Numbered from the stretch's first letter, positions 41,618 to 51,409 are shown. The stretch is 64,000 nt of DNA from an uncultured Anaerolineales bacterium (GCA_964577175.1 CAZNYC010000001.1:14851-78850), one strand, 5' to 3'. Numbers and translations are program-made. The notes: generated by a model not told the origin, from the letters alone.

Positions 41618-42741
41618 CGAATCACGATTTCGTCGAGCGTCGGGGCCGCAATGTTGCCCAGCAGGATGGCGAACGTCACACCCTCGACGTACCCCGTCAG
41701 GTTCCGGATCAGCACCACCAGGGCGCCGATGAGCAGGCCGTAGAGCAGTTTCGCGGGGTTGGTGATGGGGCTGCTCACCGGATCGGTCGCCATGTAGACC
41801 GTCCCGAAGAGGAACCCGCCTGCGAAGAGGTGCCAGCCCACCGGGCCGAACGTCGCGGGCGCGGCCGCGTGCAGCACCGCGCCCAGCACCAGGAAACCGC
41901 CGATCGCCCCGCCGACCGTCCGCCACGGCACCACGCCCACCAGCACCAGGAACGCCGCGCCCAGAAGGATGCAGACGGCACTCGTTTCGCCGATGCATCC
42001 CGCGATATGGCCCCAGACGAGGTTCGCCACCGGCTCCGCCTCTTCGTAGAACGCCTCGGGCGCCTCCAGGGCCGCCTTGGCCTCCACGAGCGGCGTCGCC
42101 ATGGTGACGGCGTCGACGGCCGAATCGGCGGTCTGCCCGGCTGCGGCTGTGGCATCGCCGTACGACGCCGGCGCGACGGCGTACTCCAGCAGCCGGCCCG
42201 GCCAGGCGGTCTTCGGCTCGATCCACGCGCCCATCCCCGTCGGGTACCCGACCGTCAGGATACACCGGCCGAGCAGGGCCGGGTTGAACAGGTTCCGCCC
42301 CGTCCCGCCGAAGATTTCTTTGCCGAGGATCACGCCGGCGGCCACGCCGACCGCCACCATCCACAGGGGAATGCCGGGCGGCAGGGCCAAGGGAAAGATG
42401 AGGCCCGTCACGAGGAACCCCTCGTTGATCTCCTCCCGCCGCACGCACGCGAAGAGGACCTCGATTATGCCGCCCACCACGTACGAGACGAGAATCACCG
42501 CCAGCACCCGCAGACCGAACAGGTACACCCCCGCCAGCAGCGGCGGCACAAGCCCGATCACCACCATCGACATGTAGCGTTTGACGTCGAGCGGGTCGCG
42601 GACCCAGGGCGGTGTGTCCGGGGCGGTGTCCGGCCAAAGGTGAAACGCCTCGATGGCGTCGAACAGCGGCCGGAAAAACCGCAGCGGCGGGCGCTCGAAG
42701 CGCGGCCGCAGCCGCTCGAAGAGACGCTCCACGACCTTCAT
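41590..42741 (-). CDS. nqrB: Na+-NQR subunit B
   Basis: 383 aa, polytopic NqrB/RnfD family. Confidence 0.85.
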   Translation of the reverse strand: MKVVERLFERLRPRFERPPLRFFRPLFDAIEAFHLWPDTAPDTPPWVRDPLDVKRYMSMVVIGLVPPLLAGVYLFGLRVLAVILVSYVVGGIIEVLFACVRREEINEGFLVTGLIFPLALPPGIPLWMVAVGVAAGVILGKEIFGGTGRNLFNPALLGRCILTVGYPTGMGAWIEPKTAWPGRLLEYAVAPASYGDATAAAGQTADSAVDAVTMATPLVEAKAALEAPEAFYEEAEPVANLVWGHIAGCIGETSAVCILLGAAFLVLVGVVPWRTVGGAIGGFLVLGAVLHAAAPATFGPVGWHLFAGGFLFGTVYMATDPVSSPITNPAKLLYGLLIGALVVLIRNLTGYVEGVTFAILLGNIAAPTLDEIVIRWRTRRLEA

Positions 42742-44129
42742 GAGGCGGCTCCTTCCTGGGCGTCCGCCTTGGCAGCGGCCGCCGCAGCCGCCTCCGCCGC
42801 CTCCTTCCGTTCCTCCGCCAGATCCTGCTGGGCCTCCAGGAACTGGGCGCGGAGTTCAATCTTCGACGGGCACACGTACGAACACAGCCCGCACCCGACG
42901 CACAGGTCCACGCCTAGCCGCTCGGCATTGTCGAGCGAGCCCTGGTAAAGATACTTGTGGATCATGTGCGGCATGATGCCCGCCGGGCACACCTTCTCGC
43001 ACAGGCCGCAGGCGATGCACGCCCGCCGCTCACCGCGGAGGGCCGTCGGCATCCGTTCCGGAAACGCCCGGCGAAGCCGCGACAGGAACGTGCGGCTGTA
43101 GGACTGGCGGGACACGCCAGGACGGATCCATCCGAACAGTTGCGGCCCCGGCATCGGCGACAGGGCGGTCAGCCCCGGGCACCCGAGGGGCAGCCCCCGG
43201 ACGCCGTCGCCTGCCATCGCGCCGGTCATGGCGCCGCCCAGGATCAGCCGCGCGCCCTCCTCGACTTCCGTCGACCGGATCGGCTCCAGGGGATAGCCCG
43301 CCGGCAGCCGCAGGTGCCGCGGGCGCTTCGCCGCCGGGCCGCCCACCGTCGTCAGGACGTCCAGCGTCGGCCGGGAATGCGTCAGGGCCCGGTCGACCGC
43401 CAGGACGCCCTCCGTCCGCAGGGCCCACACCGGTGGCCCGCCGGCCTCCAGGTCCAGCCCCCGGGCAATCAGGGCGAAAACGTCCATCGGGTACCGCAAT
43501 GGAATCGTCACGATCTGAAGAAACGCGTGGCCGCGGAGTTGCTCGTGCACCTCCTCGGCCAGGGCCGACTCCACGTCCGGCATGACGAGGTAGATCGGCT
43601 GATACTCGAGCAGCCCCTGGATCCGCTCCAATCCCCGGCTGAACGCCTCCAGGCCGGACCGCAGCATCGCCTCGCCGCGGACGCCGAACGGCTCCAGCCG
43701 CACCGTCGAGACGATGACCGCGCTCGGTTCCGCCGCCGGGTCCGGCACGGCCCCCGTGTGGGCGTCCTCGAAGAAGCACCACGCCCCAAGGTTCACGAGG
43801 CTTTGACGCGGGTCCGGCGCGGGCGGCCCTTCCTCACCCTGCTCCCCCGGGGGTACCACGTCCTCCAGGACGACGTGGCCTTGGCGGGCCTCCAGCCGGA
43901 CGGTCCCGCTGCGCGGGGCGAGGAGCGGCACCTCGAAGTGCACCGGGTCGCGTGCGAGCACCTCCCCGGCCCGTACGGACTGCCCGTCGCCGATGGCCGG
44001 CTCCGTAAACGCCAGCCGCCCGCTCTCGACGGGCAGAAAGAGGGCGTCCGGCTCGGGAAGCGTCTCGGTCGTCGCCGCCGGCCGGCCCGCCAGCGGCACG
44101 TTGTATCCACCATGACGTTTCAGATGCAT
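42738..44129 (-). CDS. nqrA: Na+-NQR subunit A homolog retaining two RnfC-type 4Fe-4S ferredoxin motifs
   Basis: NqrA/RnfC N-terminal domain (MHLKRHGGYNVPLAGRP). NqrA-like LFGWIRPG...RTFLSRL. The C-terminus has CIACGLCEKVCP and CVGCGLCSYVCP; canonical NqrA has only degenerate remnants of these. No GGAGFPT NADH/FMN site. Confidence 0.75.
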   Translation of the reverse strand: MHLKRHGGYNVPLAGRPAATTETLPEPDALFLPVESGRLAFTEPAIGDGQSVRAGEVLARDPVHFEVPLLAPRSGTVRLEARQGHVVLEDVVPPGEQGEEGPPAPDPRQSLVNLGAWCFFEDAHTGAVPDPAAEPSAVIVSTVRLEPFGVRGEAMLRSGLEAFSRGLERIQGLLEYQPIYLVMPDVESALAEEVHEQLRGHAFLQIVTIPLRYPMDVFALIARGLDLEAGGPPVWALRTEGVLAVDRALTHSRPTLDVLTTVGGPAAKRPRHLRLPAGYPLEPIRSTEVEEGARLILGGAMTGAMAGDGVRGLPLGCPGLTALSPMPGPQLFGWIRPGVSRQSYSRTFLSRLRRAFPERMPTALRGERRACIACGLCEKVCPAGIMPHMIHKYLYQGSLDNAERLGVDLCVGCGLCSYVCPSKIELRAQFLEAQQDLAEERKEAAEAAAAAAAKADAQEGAAS

Positions 44130-44179
44130 CGAAGGCCTTCGTTTTTGCGTCGCCGCCGACCCGCCCGCGATTCGGCAGG

Positions 44180-44215
44180 ATTATAACAGAAAGAACCGGC
44201 CGATGGGACTGCTAT
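44180..44215 (-). promoter_or_regulatory. Candidate nqr operon promoter with extended -10 (TGTTATAAT) and A/T-rich UP-like region
   Basis: On the minus strand TGTTATAAT sits at plus 44180-44188, preceded by A/T-rich cattttatagcata and a weak -35 (gtccca). This places the TSS ~45 nt upstream of the nqrA ATG, with an AAGG RBS. Confidence 0.35.
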
Positions 44216-44445
44216 GCTATAAAATGTCCCGCCCCCCTCGGCCGGCTGAGGGGCGGTTTGCGGTCGACGATTCCCCGGCCGCGCGATGCGCGCACCGGGG
44301 GCGGTGCGAGAGGGCTCGGAGCCAAAGGAGTCTTTGCTGCTCTCACGGTGCGCGATAGAATCGTCAGAAAGGCCGGCTGCGATTGTCGGCTGGAAACCAG
44401 CCGGGAAACGCAGGGTTAAGACGACATCGCTACGTCGGCCATGGG

Positions 44446-44515
44446 CGGGGCGGGTCTCCGCACCCACCGCGCTCAAAACGGCCTTTCCAAGGCTGCGCGG
44501 CGGGTACTCCAGACC
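44446..44515 (-). repeat. REP-like element Y copy A (inverted relative to copy B)
   Basis: About 70 nt. Its reverse complement aligns at ~88% with 48483-48548 (cccgccgcgcagccYtggaaaggScgtttYgagcgcggtgggtgYggagaccc), containing nested GC-rich hairpins. Confidence 0.6.
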
Positions 44516-44570
44516 CGCCGCGCACGAGGCCGCGTGGTCGTGTTAAAGGGTGCGAGCCGGGAGGCGAACC

Positions 44571-47500
44571 GTGAACGCGTACACTCGGATCGTTCTTTGC
44601 GCCGTCACACTCGTCGGCGTGCTTCTTGCCGGCGTGACGGCTGCGGCCGCCGACGACGGCCCCTGGTGGCGATCCCACCTCGACGCCCCCATCCTCTTTG
44701 CCAAGCGCCATTCGTACGTCGGGATTCACATTTACGATACGTACTACAAGTGGAAGCCGGGCGGTGGCCTGTACGTGCTCGAGAACCCGGCCGACCCGCC
44801 GGCCGAGCACCGTGTCCGGCCCGTCATCGACCCGACCACCTCCGAGACCCTCGGCGAGGGCATTTACAGCGATCCCGAACTCTCCTGGGACGCCCGGCGC
44901 GTGCTTTTCTGCTTCAAGGGCGAACCGACGGGCTCCACCAGCATCTACGAGATCGGCGTGGACGGTACGGGCCTTCGCCGCCTCACGAATCCCGCGCCCC
45001 ACTGTGCCGACTACAAGGGCCGCGGCGGCGGCGTCCACGACGTGGCCCCGGCGTACCTGCCCGACGGTCGCATCGTCTTTCTCTCCTCGCGTCCCAGCGG
45101 CCTCGTGCCGTGCAACAACACGGGCGTGGCGATTCTGCACGTCATGAACGCCGACGGGGCCGACATCCACCCCATTTCGGTGAACAACGTCAACGAGTTC
45201 GATCCCGTGCCGCTGCCCGACGGCCGCATCCTCTTCGGCCGATGGGAGTACATCGACAAGACCGCCCTGACGATTCAGAGCCTGTGGACGGTCTTCCCCG
45301 ATGGCACGAACGAGACGGCCCTGTTCGCGAACAACATGGTCTTTCCCGAGGCGCTGCTCGACGGCCGGCCCGTGCCGGGATCGATGCACCTGGTGGCGGC
45401 AACGCTGGCGCCGCACAACTCCCCGCCGCGAGGGAGTGTGGGCATCGTGAATCCGCTTCTCGGCAAAAACGCCCCCGGCGCGATTACCAACTTCGAGCAC
45501 CCCGACAAGCCCACCCACGACCACGGCAACTCGTGCGAGCCCTGGCCGCTCGCCGAGGACGTTATCCTTTTCAGCGGCCGGCCGACGGGCGCTGCGTTCA
45601 ACGCCATCGAGATCGCCCGCCGCGACGGTCGCCGCCGCCTCGTCCACGCCGAACCGGACATCTGCTGCCACTCGCCCATACCCGTGCGGGCGCGGCCCTG
45701 CCCGCCGGCCATCCCCGACGCGACGGACCGCACGAAGCGGACCGGCCGCTTCTACGTCCAGGACATCCACGAGGGCCTCGACGGCGTCGCCCCCGGCGAG
45801 GTCACGCACCTGCGGATCATCGAAGAGACGTCCCGCACGAGCCCCAGCCCCGGCGGCGCGATGAACCAGACGTTCCTCGTGTCCGGCGTGCTGGCCTGGA
45901 GCGCGAAGAACATCCTCGGTGTCGTCGACGTGGCCGAGGACGGGTCCGCCTACTTCGAGGCCCCCGCCGGCCGGGCCCTGTACCTGCAGGCCCTGGACGC
46001 CGACCGACGCCTGGTGCGCAGCATGCGGACGTTTATCCAGGCTGCCCCGGGCGTCACGCGTTCCTGCATCGGCTGCCACGAGCACAAGTACTCGAGCCCC
46101 GCGAACCTCGGCGACCGCCGGGCTTTCCGCCGTCCGCCCGAGAAGCCCCGCCCCGAATCCTGGGGCAGCGGCTTCATCGACTACCCGAGCATGATTCAGC
46201 CCGTCTTCGACCGGCACTGCCTCGGGTGCCATGGCGGCGAGAAGGGCCTGGCGGCGCGGCTCGACCTCTCCGGGGGATGGACCCGGTACTTCACCATCAG
46301 TTACGAGAACCTCGCGGGGCGCCGTCGGAGCCAGGTGTGGGCCGACCTTATCGCCGCCATCGATTGCATGAACGGGACGAGCCGGTACTCGGCCCGGATA
46401 TTCGATCCGCGAGGGCACGGCTCAGGTGCGGCTCCGCTGGCGGACGTGCTCGTCGGCGGGCACGAGGAACGCATTCCCCGCCTCACTCGCCGCGAGCGCG
46501 ATCTCGTCCTCGCCTGGATCGACACCAATGGCCTGTACCATGGCACGTGGGACTACTCCGAGCACGGGCCGAGCCTCAAGGCCTGGAACGGCATCAAGGC
46601 GGCGGTCCTTGCCGAGATGCGCGACGCCGGCTGTATGCGGTGCCACGGCAAGAACGGGAAGCCCGCGCGGTTCGAGAACGACTGGATCAACCTCAGGCGG
46701 CCCCCGTTCAGCCGGGTGCTTCGGGCGCCGCTCGCGAAGGAGGCCGACGGCGGCTACGGCCTGGCCCTCTGCCGCCGGCGCGACGTCGATCCGAACGGAT
46801 GGCGCAGCCGCATCATGGTCCTCGGCGGATACCAACATGCCGTCAAGCCGGTGGAGCAGTTCGAGAGGCGCCCCGCGCCGGAGCCCGAGCCGGATGCCGG
46901 ACCCGCGGTCACGTTCCAATCCACGAACGACCCGCACTACCGGTCGCTGCTGGCGGCGATTCGCCGCGGACGCCGGCAGGCCCTCGCCGCCCCGCGCGTC
47001 GACATGCCGGGCGCCGAGGCCGTCGCCGGCTCTCATCGGCAGCGGTATCCGCAGCCCCTGCCCGATCCCCTGCCCCCTCTCGAGGCGCGGACCGACGACA
47101 ATGCCGTCGTCCACCTGGCGTGGGAGCGTTCCGCCCGAACGATCGGTCTCTCGGCCGAGGTCCACCGCGGCCTGGGACCGGATTTCACGCCCACCGACGA
47201 GACCCGCCTCGCCGCGACCGGCCTCTTCCATTACGCGGACGCGTCGGCGTCGCCCGGTCCCCAGCATTACGCCGTGGTGCTCGTCTCGGCCGAGGCGAGG
47301 AGTCGCCCGATGCGGGCCCGCGTGGAGGTACCGTCGCCGGCGCCGCCCCGCGCCCCCACGGACCTGACCGCCGAGTCCGAACCCGGCCGGGTGGTCCTCC
47401 GCTGGCACGGCGCCTCGGACCCGCACGTGGGGTATACGGTCCACCGCGCCCCCGCGGGGTCCGACGCATTCGAACGGCTGACACCCGAACCGACGGCGGC

Positions 47501-48278
47501 GTGGGAGTTCGCAGACGTGTCGGCACGGTCCGACGCGACCGCCCGCTACACCGTGCGGGCCGTCAGCCGGCGGGGCGCTGTGAGTGCACCGGCAACGGCC
47601 GTCGAAGCCAAGGCCCTGCCGGAGATCCGCCAGCCCGTCTTCGTGGCCGACTTCGCCGCCGGACCCGACGCTTCCGACCTTGCGGGCAAGACCGTCCCCG
47701 CTCGCCTGCAAGGCAAGGCCCGCGTCACGGAGGGGACGCTGGATCTGCGCCAGGGCGGTCACGTCACGTATCCCCATCGCGACGCCTTCGACCTCGCGAA
47801 GCGGTTCTCCGTAGAATGCCGGGTCCGCTTCGAGAAGGCAGGCACGATGCCCGTGGTCGTCAGTTGCGGCCAGTGGAACCAGGCAGGCTGGTTCCTCCAA
47901 CGCTTCGGCGGCGGGTGGCGGTGGCACGTGGGCGGCATCGACTGCGACGGCGGCCAGCCCGTCCTCGGCCGTTGGACCCACCTCGTCGGCACCTACGACG
48001 GGACGACCGCCCGCCTGTACCAGGACGGCCGCCTTGTGGCGAAGCGCGACGGCATTGCCGTTACCACGCCCTGGAAAGGGCCCCTGCACGTCGGCCAGTA
48101 CAGCGGTGGGCCGGCGGACTCCTACCAGGTGACGGGGCAGGTGAAGGACGTGCGGATCTACAGCCGGGCCCTCGCACCCGCCGAGGTGGGCCGGACAGGG
48201 AACGTTACCCGCCGGCCCTTGGTCCCGGCGGCCGGTGCCGGGCCGGTGTTTTCAGCGCCGAGGCCCCATCCGGGATAA
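44571..48278 (+). CDS. Secreted multi-domain protein: TolB-like beta-propeller + three CxxCH heme-c motifs + fibronectin-III + LamG/ConA-like lectin domain
   Basis: GTG at 44571 with GGGAGG 7 nt upstream; the listed ORF start at 44550 is less well supported. Signal peptide. WD40/TolB-like repeats (IYEIGVDGTGLRRLT, DGRIVFLSSR). Heme motifs CIGCHE, CLGCHG and CMRCHG. FN3 (VVLRWHGASDPHVGYTVHRA). LamG motif (KDVRIYSRAL). Confidence 0.7.
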   Translation: MNAYTRIVLCAVTLVGVLLAGVTAAAADDGPWWRSHLDAPILFAKRHSYVGIHIYDTYYKWKPGGGLYVLENPADPPAEHRVRPVIDPTTSETLGEGIYSDPELSWDARRVLFCFKGEPTGSTSIYEIGVDGTGLRRLTNPAPHCADYKGRGGGVHDVAPAYLPDGRIVFLSSRPSGLVPCNNTGVAILHVMNADGADIHPISVNNVNEFDPVPLPDGRILFGRWEYIDKTALTIQSLWTVFPDGTNETALFANNMVFPEALLDGRPVPGSMHLVAATLAPHNSPPRGSVGIVNPLLGKNAPGAITNFEHPDKPTHDHGNSCEPWPLAEDVILFSGRPTGAAFNAIEIARRDGRRRLVHAEPDICCHSPIPVRARPCPPAIPDATDRTKRTGRFYVQDIHEGLDGVAPGEVTHLRIIEETSRTSPSPGGAMNQTFLVSGVLAWSAKNILGVVDVAEDGSAYFEAPAGRALYLQALDADRRLVRSMRTFIQAAPGVTRSCIGCHEHKYSSPANLGDRRAFRRPPEKPRPESWGSGFIDYPSMIQPVFDRHCLGCHGGEKGLAARLDLSGGWTRYFTISYENLAGRRRSQVWADLIAAIDCMNGTSRYSARIFDPRGHGSGAAPLADVLVGGHEERIPRLTRRERDLVLAWIDTNGLYHGTWDYSEHGPSLKAWNGIKAAVLAEMRDAGCMRCHGKNGKPARFENDWINLRRPPFSRVLRAPLAKEADGGYGLALCRRRDVDPNGWRSRIMVLGGYQHAVKPVEQFERRPAPEPEPDAGPAVTFQSTNDPHYRSLLAAIRRGRRQALAAPRVDMPGAEAVAGSHRQRYPQPLPDPLPPLEARTDDNAVVHLAWERSARTIGLSAEVHRGLGPDFTPTDETRLAATGLFHYADASASPGPQHYAVVLVSAEARSRPMRARVEVPSPAPPRAPTDLTAESEPGRVVLRWHGASDPHVGYTVHRAPAGSDAFERLTPEPTAAWEFADVSARSDATARYTVRAVSRRGAVSAPATAVEAKALPEIRQPVFVADFAAGPDASDLAGKTVPARLQGKARVTEGTLDLRQGGHVTYPHRDAFDLAKRFSVECRVRFEKAGTMPVVVSCGQWNQAGWFLQRFGGGWRWHVGGIDCDGGQPVLGRWTHLVGTYDGTTARLYQDGRLVAKRDGIAVTTPWKGPLHVGQYSGGPADSYQVTGQVKDVRIYSRALAPAEVGRTGNVTRRPLVPAAGAGPVFSAPRPHPG

Positions 48279-48353
48279 TCGGCATGCAAGCGGCACGGTG
48301 TTCGTGCCGGGCCTCGAGACAAGGACAGCGTGCAATGCCCCGTCCGAGAAAAC

Positions 48354-48409
48354 GGGCTCTCCTCCCAAAACGGTGGGAGGGCGTGGCGCTTTCTCCTGCG
48401 CGGGCCCCA
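48354..48409 (+). repeat. REP-like element X copy 2
   Basis: Near-identical to 36742-36796. Confidence 0.6.
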
Positions 48410-48482
48410 ATCCAGGCAAGAGGTTAGCCCTGCAACGCTAACTCGTGCGCGGCGGGTCGGCGCCTGTCCCGAGCGGAGCCGA

Positions 48483-48548
48483 GGAACTCCCGCCGCGCAG
48501 CCCTGGAAAGGGCGTTTCGAGCGCGGTGGGTGTGGAGACCCACCGCGC
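48483..48548 (+). repeat. REP-like element Y copy B
   Basis: Contains the perfect 10-bp hairpin gcgcggtggg-tgtggaga-cccaccgcgc. Inverted partner at 44446-44515. Confidence 0.6.
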
Positions 48549-48618
48549 AAAGGGCCGACGTAGCGTTGTCGTGTCAGGAGGAGCGGCGAAGTTTACCCAA
48601 CGCAGGCGGAATCTCAGA

Positions 48619-49776
48619 ATGACCAGCGCCAGCGAGGAAGCGCACCCCATGCAAGACGCCGACCCGTCGGAGAAATCCAACCGAAGCGCCTCGGACGCCG
48701 ACCGGACGGGGCGCGGCGCGACCATCGTCCCCGTCCTGATGGCGGGCGGGTTCGGCACACGCCTCTGGCCACTCAGCACGCCGGACCGGCCAAAGCAGTT
48801 CCTCACGGAATTCGAGGGCCGGTCGCTCTTCCAGCAGACCCTGGCGCGGGCGGTGCGGCTGGCCCCGGCCGAGCGCGTCCTCGTCATGACGAGCGCATCG
48901 CTCGCGCCGCAGGCGCGCAAGCAGGCGTCCGATGTGCCGGCGGAGAACGTCATCCTCGAACCCCTGCGGCGCGACACCGGCCCGGCCGTCATCCTTGCGG
49001 CGCTCGTCGTCGGCCGGCGATGGCCGGACGCCGTCATGGCCGTCTTCCCCTCCGATCACTTCATCGGCGACGAGGCGGCGTTCGTCGAGACGCTGGCCTC
49101 GACGGCGGCGCGGGCCATGGAGGGGGGGCTCGGGACGGTCGGCATCGCGCCCACCTCGCCCGCCACGGGGTACGGCTACCTCCGCCTGAGCCGGGGCGCC
49201 GAGCCGCTCGTAGCGCAACCCGTCGAGGCGTTCGTCGAAAAACCGGACCGCGAGCGGGCCGAGGCGTACGTGGCCGACGGCCGGCACCTGTGGAACAGCG
49301 GCATCTTCATCTGGCGGCCGGCGGCCCTGCTCGAGGCCGCCCGGCAGCACCTGCCCGGTACCGTGGCGGCTCTCGAAGGCGTCGCGGACCATGTGGAGCG
49401 CGAGACGTTCGCGGCCGAGGCCCGCGCGGCGTTCGAGCGCATCGAGGCCGACTCCATCGATTACGCCGTCATGGAGAAGGCCGAAGACGTGTGGTGCGTG
49501 CCGGCCGCGTTCGACTGGGATGACGTGGGCGGCTGGGAGGCCGCCGCCCGGCTCCTGCCCGCCGACGACGCCGGCAACCGGGTGCAGGGCCGGGTGGTCC
49601 TCGACGGGGCCGACGGGTGCATCGTCCTCGGCGAAGGGGGCCGGCCCGTGGCGGTGGCGGGGATGCAGGACTGCATCATCGTCCAGGGGCCGGCGGGGAC
49701 GCTGGTGTGCCCGAAGTCGGCGGCGGACCGCATCAAGCCGCTCGTGCAGCGGATCCTGGACGGGGAACAACCGTAG
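48619..49776 (+). CDS. manC: Mannose-1-phosphate guanylyltransferase (GDP-mannose pyrophosphorylase)
   Basis: Nucleotidyltransferase motif VPVLMAGGFGTRLWPLS. ManC-family C-terminus. The alternative ATG at 48649 is also possible. Confidence 0.75.
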   Translation: MTSASEEAHPMQDADPSEKSNRSASDADRTGRGATIVPVLMAGGFGTRLWPLSTPDRPKQFLTEFEGRSLFQQTLARAVRLAPAERVLVMTSASLAPQARKQASDVPAENVILEPLRRDTGPAVILAALVVGRRWPDAVMAVFPSDHFIGDEAAFVETLASTAARAMEGGLGTVGIAPTSPATGYGYLRLSRGAEPLVAQPVEAFVEKPDRERAEAYVADGRHLWNSGIFIWRPAALLEAARQHLPGTVAALEGVADHVERETFAAEARAAFERIEADSIDYAVMEKAEDVWCVPAAFDWDDVGGWEAAARLLPADDAGNRVQGRVVLDGADGCIVLGEGGRPVAVAGMQDCIIVQGPAGTLVCPKSAADRIKPLVQRILDGEQP

Positions 49777-49801
49777 CCTGCGGGTGCCGCGCATACGAAA
49801 G

Positions 49802-49841
49802 GCGCGGCGGGTCTCCGTACCCGCCGCGCCTCATTCTTCTG
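49802..49841 (+). terminator. Rho-independent terminator downstream of manC
   Basis: Perfect 11-bp GC stem (gcgcggcgggt / acccgccgcgc) with the 6-nt loop ctccgt, followed by ctcattcttctg. The core resembles REP element Y. Confidence 0.5.
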
Positions 49842-50119
49842 CCACGCTGCCGTCCTGCGCCTATGCCTCGGGGGCCGGTTCGGGTGCCGGCGCCGCCGCG
49901 GCCTCCACCTTCGGAGGGCGCGGTTCAGGCGAAGCGTACCGATAAACATTACGAAGGAAAGAATATCCGACAGGATGGGGTAAGCGATGACGGCACTCGT
50001 CGGCGCGCTCTTCCAGACGCCGAGTCCGCCCTCGCCATGGCAGCATAGGCCCAAGACAATCGGTCAAGAAGGTCTCTTGCCTTCGCTCGACCCGGCGCAC
50101 CGAACGGCGTGAGGGGCCG

Positions 50120-51409
50120 TCAAGCCAAGGGGGGCGCCTCCTCGTGATGCGGGGCTCGGAGTGCAACCGTGAGGAGCGCGGCCAGGACCAGGAGGGCGGC
50201 CGATGTATAGTACGCGAAGTCAAAGCTCCCCTTCCACGCTTCGACGATGCGGCCATCGTAGACCCAGCCGGCGAACTTGGCCAGCATGAAACCGCCGACA
50301 CCCCACGCCGTAAACACCAGACCGTAGTTCACGCCGAAATTCACCAGGCCGTAGAAGTCCTTTGTGATCGACGGGAAGAGCGCCAGGTTCGACCCGTAGG
50401 CGGCGCCGACGATAGCCGCCATCAGCGCCAAGGCGGCGGCGGTCCCGAGCGCCGTGTCGGGCCTGGCCTGCGACAGACTAAACACCATGATGGCCTGGAG
50501 CACGAAGAAGAGGATGAGCGTAGCCTTTCGGCCAAGTTTGTCGGAAAGGATGCCCGCGATGATCCGCCCTGCCCCGTTGCCAATCGCCAAGGCGACGACG
50601 GCGATGACGCCTGCCTCGGCCCTTCCAAGTTTCTTGGCCACCGAGATAACCATCAGACCAGCACCCGCGCCGCACGCATAGAGGAACCAGATGAGGTAGA
50701 ACTGCCACGTCTTGAGCATCTCGCCCGGCGTAAAGTTCTCCTTTTTCACCGGCCCGCCGTTCGCCTTCGGGGCCGGGGGCGTGCCCGCCGGCACGTACCC
50801 CGCGGGGGGCGGCTTCAACAACTGGGCCAGCCCCACCACAATCACCAGGAAGCCAATCCCCAGGATCATGACCATGCCCGAAAGGCCCACCTGCCCGATC
50901 AACCACATCGCCAGCGGAGCCACGTACACGCTCGCCAGGCCGAAGCCCGACACAACCAACCCGGCAATCAAGCCGGTCTTGGCAGCCGAGAACCACTTGA
51001 CGGCGGGTGGCGTGGCCGAGGCATAGCCGAACCCGATACCGGCACCCGCCAAAACGCCAAAGCCAACGATGAATCCCAGCAACGCGTACTCGACCAGGTA
51101 CAGGCCACACAGCGCCGCCAGGATCATGCCGATGCCCACGAGGATCCCGCCAAGCGTCGCCACCAGTCGAGGACTTAAACGGTCCTGCATCCGTCCGGCC
51201 GGCACCATGATCAGGCAAAACACGAGGCATGCGATGGAGTAGGGCCACGCCTTGTCGCTCTGGTCCCAGCCCCATGCCTCCGGCACACCGCCCGCGATGA
51301 TGCTCCAGGAATACAGGACTCCCAGGGCCAGGTTGATGCCCATGCCGGCAAAGGTCACACGCCAACCGTGGTTCTCGACGTGCTGCGTCACCTGCAAGTC
51401 CTCCGTCAT
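50120..51409 (-). CDS. MFS transporter, oxalate/formate antiporter (OFA) family
   Basis: 429 aa, 12 predicted TM, typical OFA-family sequence (GINLALGVLYSWS...). Confidence 0.75.
   Translation of the reverse strand: MTEDLQVTQHVENHGWRVTFAGMGINLALGVLYSWSIIAGGVPEAWGWDQSDKAWPYSIACLVFCLIMVPAGRMQDRLSPRLVATLGGILVGIGMILAALCGLYLVEYALLGFIVGFGVLAGAGIGFGYASATPPAVKWFSAAKTGLIAGLVVSGFGLASVYVAPLAMWLIGQVGLSGMVMILGIGFLVIVVGLAQLLKPPPAGYVPAGTPPAPKANGGPVKKENFTPGEMLKTWQFYLIWFLYACGAGAGLMVISVAKKLGRAEAGVIAVVALAIGNGAGRIIAGILSDKLGRKATLILFFVLQAIMVFSLSQARPDTALGTAAALALMAAIVGAAYGSNLALFPSITKDFYGLVNFGVNYGLVFTAWGVGGFMLAKFAGWVYDGRIVEAWKGSFDFAYYTSAALLVLAALLTVALRAPHHEEAPPLA

Follow-up and report, generated by a model that had tools for sequence, protein, structure and literature searches.

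In the current study, we examined a stretch of 64,000 nt (hereafter the window; 69% GC, all coordinates are window positions) that is labelled as DNA of an uncultured Anaerolineales bacterium, and in which two inverted copies of a GC-rich palindromic element, here called copy A and copy B, lie on either side of a gene for a secreted protein related to HzsA. We consider it probable that both are ordinary copies of a non-autonomous, structure-forming intergenic repeat family of high-GC Planctomycetota, which resembles repetitive extragenic palindromes (REPs) and their inverted pairs (REPINs) or miniature inverted-repeat transposable elements (MITEs). Their placement on both sides of the HzsA-related gene would then be incidental.

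The repeat pair and its family

An inverted-repeat search of the window recovered two arms of 84 nt with 88% complementarity at 44421-44504 and 48489-48572, together with a second, indel-offset pair of 35 nt and 77% at 44512-44546 and 48424-48458. The preliminary description of this DNA had reported two inverted copies of about 88% identity around the gene, and this is borne out by a blastn comparison of each copy with the window, in which the 84-nt arm scored an E value of 4e-20. Neither this comparison nor the profile of the composite element described below detected any further full-length copy in the window. The hairpin pattern GCGCGGYGGGT-N6-ACCCRCCGCGC occurs five times, against 0.05 expected from shuffled sequence (0.13 when the loop is allowed to vary, again with five found), and the observed count was reached in none of 100 shuffles. 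The window holds six hairpins at four sites, i.e., two in copy A, two in copy B and two solo hairpins, of which the one at 49802-49829 had already been recognized as a third copy of the hairpin core; the one at 60459-60486 and a degenerate hairpin at 62125-62152 are added here. The inverted repeats are thus real and far beyond chance. In DNA of 69% GC many short GC-rich near-palindromes arise by chance, and the similarity could in principle be a compositional artefact, but the E value, the shuffles, the recurrence of exact 28-mers in 18 metagenome-assembled genomes (MAGs) and profile matches down to an E value of 1e-41 leave this explanation practically no probability.

The family was sampled as the stretches found by a single scan of genome contigs with the 28-mer pattern GCGCGGYGGGTCTCCNNNCCCRCCGCGC, and individual loci are referred to by L-numbers. 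Among them, the hairpin was found in at least 107 genomic stretches of 18 species-representative MAGs, 12 of which have at least three loci, and the hosts are nearly all labelled as Planctomycetota, either Phycisphaerae or Planctomycetia. The set labelled as uncultured Anaerolineales includes loci syntenic with the window (L012, from CAZEBQ), and the closest relative of the window among the matches listed is JAWODB01 (Phycisphaerae BLK5-1.bin.98), with about 88% nucleotide identity in syntenic genes. A relaxed search of the sampled loci and the window gave 246 hairpins in 765 kb, with loops that are nearly always TCTCCNNA or its complement. In addition, a profile of about 137 positions was built from 13 members of the composite element; as the element is palindromic, the profile matches on both strands, and 76 matches covering at least 100 positions correspond to about 40 distinct composites, with only A and B in the window. 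The REP-like character previously proposed for the element, and the wider family that this implies, are supported by these counts, and the search of genome contigs pointed neither to an element confined to this locus nor to a compositional artefact.

Copy B shares 89-93% identity with copies in L057, L064, L048 and L082, compared to 88% with copy A. At L057:2142-2293, a copy with flanks unrelated to the window matches copy B at 89% identity over 152 nt and shares the insertion in the loop of hairpin 1. Since B is closer to copies elsewhere than to A, the two are independent members of the family and not the product of a local inverted duplication. No 15-mer of the family was matched in the searchable literature, and for REPs or MITEs in Planctomycetes only a general survey turned up (PMC3733652). 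Overall, this is a sequence-conserved palindromic repeat family of a dozen or more uncultured Phycisphaerae-like species that has apparently not been described so far.

Anatomy and predicted folding of the element

The basic unit, the GCGCGGYGGGTCTCC hairpin, is 28 nt long, GCGCGGYGGG-TCTCCNNA-CCCRCCGCGC, with a GC stem of 10-11 bp. The unit is predicted to fold with an 11-bp stem at -30 kcal/mol (z -4.6 to -6.3). Across 66 distinct 28-mers, 95.6% of the stem cells are paired, and changes on both sides occur in 4 of the 11 pairs (28 cells vs 10.1 in shuffles, 0/500); the stems are kept by compensatory changes. Where two hairpins form a doublet, the order is almost invariably a CTCC loop followed by a GGAG loop (43 cases vs a single one in the reverse order), independent of the strand that is read, and the spacers fall into classes of 14, 20-22, 28 and 34-37 nt. 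Most doublets (48/68) are heterotypic, combining one hairpin with a C-G pair and one with a T-A pair at stem position 7.

In copies A and B, the doublet is part of a larger composite. The element had been described as about 70 nt long (44446-44515 and 48483-48548), but the similarity between the reverse complement of A and B extends well past this length, both in their alignment and in relatives elsewhere, and the actual unit spans roughly 130-150 nt, at 44417-44545 and 48425-48575. It starts with a terminal repeat, TA-GC-AC[T/G]ACAACGCTAAC-TCGT (family form TA-RY-AC[T/G]ACA[A/G]CGC...), followed by hairpin 1, GCGCGGCGGG-TCTCCGYA-CCCGCCGCGC, with the C-G pair at stem position 7 and the CTCC loop. 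Next come a spacer of 22 nt, AGCCCTGGAAAGGCCGTTTCGA, with a small stem of its own, and hairpin 2, GCGCGGTGGG-TGCGGAGA-CCCACCGCGC, with the T-A pair and the GGAG loop, after which the link AAATGGCCGAC leads to the inverted terminal repeat TTAGCGTTGT[A/C]GTGC-TA. The hairpins, previously taken to be nested, are therefore two adjacent stem-loops, and the "nested" pairing (cccgccgcgc...gcgcggtggg) represents an alternative fold between them that is the predicted minimum free energy structure of copy A only. As single strands, both copies are predicted to fold at -75 to -85 kcal/mol (z -4.4 to -6.3): copy A into a single long hairpin in which its two hairpins pair with each other (-78.8 kcal/mol, z -6.3), and copy B into a four-way junction of the terminal stem, the two hairpins and the spacer stem (-85.5 kcal/mol, z -4.4).

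Terminal inverted repeats on both sides were detected in 14 elements, i.e., A, B and 12 others. In 11 of the 14, TA occurs at each end at a constant distance, preceded by a pyrimidine and followed by a purine (context YTAR), and complementarity ceases beyond the TA. In copy B, the TA at the right end is changed to TC. Complementary flanks were found for 21% of the doublets, 3% of the controls and 1% of the solo hairpins. The only signal in the oriented flanks of 76 solo and 114 grouped hairpins is a T-richness at positions -4 to -1 on the strand that reads CTCC. The GTAG within the terminal repeat was considered as a possible REP tag and rejected, as GTCG can take its place and its distance to the hairpin is about 15-25 nt. 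An array of clustered regularly interspaced short palindromic repeats was likewise discarded, as the doublets are inverted and not direct, and the lone tandem array (in L024) repeats the whole 52-nt unit including its spacer. Over the window, Rfam 15 gave no match at the gathering thresholds, and relaxing the search to E<=1 for 44100-50000 returned only an insignificant lysM-Actino match, located outside the elements.

Genomic placement and dynamics

Genes were called with a self-trained codon-bias caller, which recovered those of the window and assigned 82% of the sampled DNA as coding. Despite this coding density, 127 hairpin groups are intergenic and 23 genic, thus 85% are extragenic. Convergent spacers are enriched, with 30% of the hairpin groups vs 16% of all spacers, while divergent ones hold 9% vs 13%. 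The loop of solo hairpins shows no preferred orientation with respect to the gene that ends next to it (42:41). In the sampled loci, hairpin groups 0.3-2.6 kb apart enclose dozens of ordinary genes, such as those for an aldolase, a short-chain dehydrogenase, a MurA-like protein, sigma factors and hydrogenase maturation proteins. Bracketing of single genes is indeed to be expected from a dense intergenic repeat, and the bracketing that had been noted for the HzsA-related gene does not look exceptional, as many housekeeping genes share it.

The family marks spacers that gain or lose DNA between species. L007 and L103 differ in two reciprocal cases, in which one has a doublet where the other has a spacer of 10-40 nt, and the spacer after the acetyl-CoA hydrolase gene contains one hairpin in the window vs three tandem copies in L012. 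The third of these copies (L012:4560-5060, reverse strand) is split by an insertion of about 190 nt with terminal inverted repeats, TACGTGTTTAGCG...CGCTAAACACGTG, suggesting that a second small element uses the hairpin as an insertion site. Some copies are old: after the manC stop, a hairpin with the same stem and a different loop is present in the window and in L195 and L196, whose ManC proteins are 82% and 75% identical to that of the window, and the three differ by a compensatory change from T-A to C-G. The family also fragments short-read assemblies in this lineage. Three contigs of the organism of the window (Logan, SRR7048227) stop inside elements, one at 44478 (L201), one spanning 48522-49828 (L197) and one starting at 49805 (L001), as expected for a high-copy repeat.

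At L024:1-230, the hairpin and a 24-nt spacer have been amplified into a minisatellite of at least four near-identical units, a 52-nt tandem repeat. At L002:3735-3762 and L059:511-538, the hairpin lies within a seemingly continuous conserved reading frame (...ERGGCGDPPRK...) with flanks of 83-89% identity, in which the two species differ by an in-frame indel of 3 nt; as in the case of the Rickettsia palindromic elements, it may have inserted in frame into the linker of a protein. Within the window, a gene for a PIF1-like superfamily 1 helicase (PF05970, E 1.8e-26; 60560-62113, minus strand) occupies a low-GC island at about 60500-62200 (55-59% vs 69% GC), between the hairpin at 60459 and the degenerate one at 62125. 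The syntenic stretch of L012 has only about 430 nt and no helicase, and the island therefore looks like a recent insertion beside the repeats.

Comparison with known repeat systems

REPs, the REP-associated tyrosine transposases (RAYTs) and RAYT-like genes with linked families of terminal-repeat units have been reported across phyla including Planctomycetes (Di Nocera et al. 2013, PMC3733652), and REPINs are inverted REP pairs mobilised by RAYTs (Bertels & Rainey 2011, PMC3116915; PMC3337134). Like the REPs of E. coli with their bacterial interspersed mosaic elements (BIMEs), and like the REPs tagged by GTAG or CGTC (PMC3733652), the family studied here consists of GC-rich imperfect palindromes of 20-40 nt that are extragenic, present in high copy and biased to 3' ends and convergent spacers. 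Its opposite-orientation pairs of two alternating stem types with discrete spacers recall the Y and Z REPs and the BIME linkers, and copy number varies in orthologous spacers, where other mobile DNA inserts into units (L012). On the other hand, its hairpin has no adjoining GTAG or CGTC tag, conservation of its CTCC loop equals that of the stem, terminal inverted repeats of about 20 nt ending in TA occur in a minority of its copies, including A and B, and the family has no sequence similarity to published REPs.

The resemblance to the REPIN-RAYT system lies in two inverted REPs that can fold with their spacer into a long hairpin, in abundant singlets, in persistence across species, and in the presence of RAYT-like Y1 genes with their own inverted REPs in the same MAGs. 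However, a cognate RAYT flanked by the studied hairpin was not found in the sampled loci, the RAYT-like genes seen carry NTAGCC-tagged REPs of another sequence, and the two hairpins of the doublet are systematically of different type.

MITEs of the IS630/Tc1-mariner type that are flanked by TA include the Correia elements of Neisseria, the pneumococcal RUP and the cyanobacterial Nezha. Judged by the generally known traits of such elements, the composites are similar in their length of 100-150 nt, in their terminal inverted repeats with TA on both sides in a YTAR context, in their intergenic position in either orientation, often by promoters or in transcripts, and in their strongly structured RNA. 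They differ in that no insertion sequence (IS) with matching ends was found in the sampled loci, and in that the interior hairpin also occurs alone, without terminal repeats, at many more sites, which is atypical for MITEs. A further parallel is given by TIRtrons and their TIRYT genes (PMC3733652), whose terminal-inverted-repeat units occur in dimers or clusters and are linked to RAYT-like HUH enzymes instead of DDE transposases; still, no TIRYT gene bounded by the studied terminal repeats was found, and the published motif GGGGWSAS is absent. Descriptively, the family is REP/BIME-like with some hybrid traits, a REP doublet being joined to terminal repeats, and this mixture of REP doublet and MITE recommends it for studies on the copying of such repeats.

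Candidate enzymes and the evidence for mobility

We infer that the elements spread by transposition in trans. The agent that we prefer, although tentatively, would be a hairpin-recognising HUH/Y1 transposase (RAYT- or TIRYT-like) acting on single-stranded DNA, as the units are hairpins that occur as head-to-head pairs and many singlets. A TA-targeting DDE transposase of the IS630/Tc1 type acting on the terminal inverted repeats is possible and comes next, in keeping with the TA at both ends of 11 of the 14 elements with terminal repeats and its YTAR context; some other or extinct form of mobility appears about as possible as the latter. RAYT-like Y1_Tnp genes, which came to light by inspecting open reading frames in uncalled gaps of the hairpin-selected loci, are present in the same MAGs at L024:3855-4442, L093:4113-4649 and L053:5547-6092, all on the minus strand. 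The first two score 27.6 and 23.7 bits in Pfam, against a cutoff of 23, and L053 carries a homologue; their motifs are TWTTYGTWLPGDARGWVD, the HUH motif SNHVH and a C-terminal RYVSNQ. Each gene is flanked by its own inverted, NTAGCC-tagged (YTAG) GC palindromes, differing in sequence from the studied family (in L053, 36 nt with 92% complementarity, 540 nt apart). The clade has at least 509 relatives in metagenomes and, together with its REPs, constitutes a concrete candidate enzyme family.

Several results weigh against reading A and B as ordinary copies of such a mobile family. In 0.8 Mb of hairpin-selected loci, no Y1 or DDE transposase is flanked by this hairpin or its terminal repeats, and neither is adjacent to any of 80 RAYT-like metagenome loci; the involvement of a RAYT, which the preliminary description had considered possible, is not supported in either set. 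The oriented flank profile of the 76 solo and 114 grouped hairpins contains no GTAG- or CGTC-type tag adjoining the stem-loop. About 99% of the solo hairpins and about 80% of the doublets have no terminal repeats, which together with the missing IS with these ends also speaks against a DDE enzyme. No clean empty site was recovered in L007/L103, L002/L059, L076 vs the window or the orthologues of the flanking genes, and, TA being self-complementary, a TA duplication is indistinguishable from a terminal repeat that ends in TA. The presence/absence boundaries in L007 and L103 are blurred by divergence and their doublets have no terminal repeats; both sites are occupied in L002 and L059; synteny between L076 and the window ends first; and the orthologues of three flanking genes all have different neighbours. 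Finally, gene order breaks exactly at both elements, and the only two composites in 64 kb sit in adjacent spacers, for which the chance is about 2/54, a post-hoc figure.

Further searches concerned an autonomous parent. A phmmer comparison of E. coli RayT with all open reading frames of the sampled loci gave no match, and no pairs of terminal repeats 0.3-2.5 kb apart were detected in these loci. The only IS630-family homologue found in them is in L044 and has different terminal repeats, CTAGTGCTCTGTTACT. This element (L044:951-2276, with HTH_32 and DDE_3 in two frames) lies on a contig binned as Acidobacteriaceae, and directly at its right end sits an element with one hairpin (TACTACAACGCTAG...hairpin...), after which come 22 nt that repeat the IS end, plus 'NN'; the arrangement may have arisen by insertion into this end of the IS or from an error in scaffolding. 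A terminal-repeat-like match in L135 was dismissed as a coincidence in a low-GC organism.

A possible cassette or possible scars of rearrangement

The two last points in the list above bear on a different explanation, namely that the gene and the inverted elements on its two sides belong together as a unit, either as a cassette resembling a composite transposon or because recombination between repeats created the present gene order. Two relatives, L195 and L196 (ManC 82% and 75% identical), keep manC together with the major facilitator superfamily (MFS) gene and have a VanZ-like gene upstream of manC, and the upstream neighbours of nqrA also differ among relatives. The closest homologues of the HzsA-related gene (84% at the nucleotide level) are in unrelated contexts, and their homology ends within the coding region; the layout around the gene is symmetric, as both elements point the same end outward; and A and B are the only full-length composites in the window. 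Yet A and B are only 88% identical, with a longest exact match of 17 nt, and both have closer matches in copies elsewhere; no target duplication is seen at their outer ends, and no second copy of the A-gene-B unit was seen. As the gene family is huge (2049 matches at E<=1e-50), the differing context may simply reflect paralogy, and at 75-87% protein identity breaks in synteny are frequent and repeats occupy a large share of the spacers. We therefore regard a unit of this kind as unlikely. The more specific scenario, in which a REP-doublet pair captured the 3.7-kb gene and relocated it into the nqr-manC spacer, is improbable; if the cassette reading were true, the repeats would be gene-shuffling agents for the large secreted heme-protein families of Planctomycetota.

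The minimum for recombination by RecA is usually cited as roughly 25 nt. With a longest exact match between copy A and copy B below this length, inversion of the segment by homologous recombination was set aside as unlikely. The earlier proposal that the repeats could be scars of REP/RAYT-mediated rearrangement is compatible with the position of both copies at synteny breakpoints; against it, A and B are not each other's closest relatives, they share no more than 17 nt exactly, and the closest homologues of the gene have no hairpin flanks. Reading A and B as ordinary family members guards against an over-reading of the locus, in that the inverted repeats are then neither a gene-specific switch nor an invertible segment.

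RNA structure and termination

The same DNA could alternatively be regarded as encoding dedicated cis-acting RNAs of this locus, with A as a regulator in the 5' leader and B as a terminator or 3' stabiliser. The very stable predicted structures of both copies are consistent with this, as is the position of copy A, which ends 13 nt upstream of the GGGAGG ribosome-binding site and is thus in the leader or contains the promoter; from the sequence, any promoter of the gene must be either within copy A or upstream of it. In a scan of 43500-51000 for sigma-70 promoters, none was detected in or near the elements. Three species retain the hairpin after manC in the same place, with the compensatory T-A to C-G change, and that of the window was flagged as terminator-like in a terminator scan (13 pairs, tail CATTCTTCTG; fold -30.4 kcal/mol, z -6.3). 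However, the same sequence is present at more than 100 unrelated loci in both orientations to genes (42:41), A and B face their respective downstream genes in opposite orientations, the elements are absent from homologues of the HzsA-related gene, copy B begins 147 nt past the stop, and no Rfam family matches. Moreover, in the CTCC orientation the hairpin is preceded by the T-rich tract (with an A-rich 3' side on the other strand), thus the repeat has no downstream U-tract; a hairpin followed by a T/U tract, as in intrinsic terminators, is not a property of the family, and only the copy at 49802-49829 was flagged. Taken together, a dedicated regulatory role for A and B seems very unlikely.

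The suggestion that the hairpins act as terminating or mRNA-stabilising structures is plausible only for the one after manC, given its retention in two other species; this solo hairpin probably serves as a 3'-end barrier or terminator. For the family at large, the missing downstream T-tract and the balanced orientation argue otherwise. As ordinary family members, A and B would affect the locus passively: A would have placed a very stable structure into the promoter or 5' leader of the gene, or replaced it, and B would have placed one between the gene and manC. In this way, the family supplies very stable hairpins to leaders and 3' ends.

Features of the locus

The coordinates of the elements and the neighbouring genes are given in Table 1. 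Copy A occupies the spacer that separates the HzsA-related gene from the divergent nqrA/rnfC-like gene, ending 25 nt short of the GTG start of the former. Copy B starts 147 nt after the stop of the HzsA-related gene (48278) and ends 44 nt before the manC ATG.

Table 1. Elements, hairpins and neighbouring genes in the window
Feature	Position	Strand	Remarks
Copy A, composite element	44417..44545	-	129 nt, TA to TA; nhmmer 116 bits, E 3e-34
Copy A, hairpin 2	44445..44472	+	GCGGGGCGGGTCTCCGCACCCACCGCGC; one stem mismatch; CTCC loop on + strand
Copy A, 22-nt spacer	44473..44494	-	reverse complement AGCCTTGGAAAGGCCGTTTTGA; small internal hairpin
Copy A, hairpin 1	44495..44523	+	GCGCGGCGGGTACTCCAGACCCGCCGCGC; 9-nt loop
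Copy A, junction predicted for an empty site			...GAAACGCAGGGT(TA)AAGGGTGCGAGCC...
Copy B, composite element	48425..48575	+	151 nt; nhmmer 121.8 bits, E 5e-36
Copy B, hairpin 1	48447..48498	+	loop carries an insertion of ~23 nt
Copy B, 22-nt spacer	48499..48520	+	AGCCCTGGAAAGGGCGTTTCGA
Copy B, hairpin 2	48521..48548	-	GCGCGGTGGGTGTGGAGACCCACCGCGC; GGAG loop on + strand; T-A type stem
Solo hairpin	49802..49829	+	26 nt past manC stop; between convergent manC and MFS transporter gene
Solo hairpin	60459..60486	+	28 nt past stop of acetyl-CoA hydrolase/GNAT gene
Degenerate hairpin	62125..62152	+	3 mismatches to pattern; far side of low-GC Pif1-helicase island
HzsA-related secreted protein gene	44571..48278	+	context, not part of the element
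First gene of nqr/rnf-type operon (nqrA/rnfC-like)	42738..44129	-	NQRA_2nd and 4Fe-4S domains; upstream, divergent
manC	48619..49776	+	ATG at 48619; downstream of the HzsA-related gene; convergent with MFS transporter gene

The HzsA-related protein, a member of the very large family mentioned above, has an HZS_alpha middle domain (E 8e-24), a Laminin_G_3 domain and cytochrome c motifs. For manC, the called homologue P0121 has 375 aa, pointing to a start about 10 codons inside the open reading frame.

Two minor features were seen near the divergent promoter region. Upstream of copy A, 44200-44335 on the plus strand comprises an AT-rich box, TGCTATAAAAT, a GC hairpin, CCCGCCCCCCTC...GAGGGGCGG, a TTTG and a second hairpin; its only Rfam match is the insignificant one to lysM-Actino (19 bits, E 0.16, vs 154 bits at the gathering threshold). 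A TGTTATAAT box located on the minus strand some 50 nt before nqrA is conserved as TGTTACAAT in L198.

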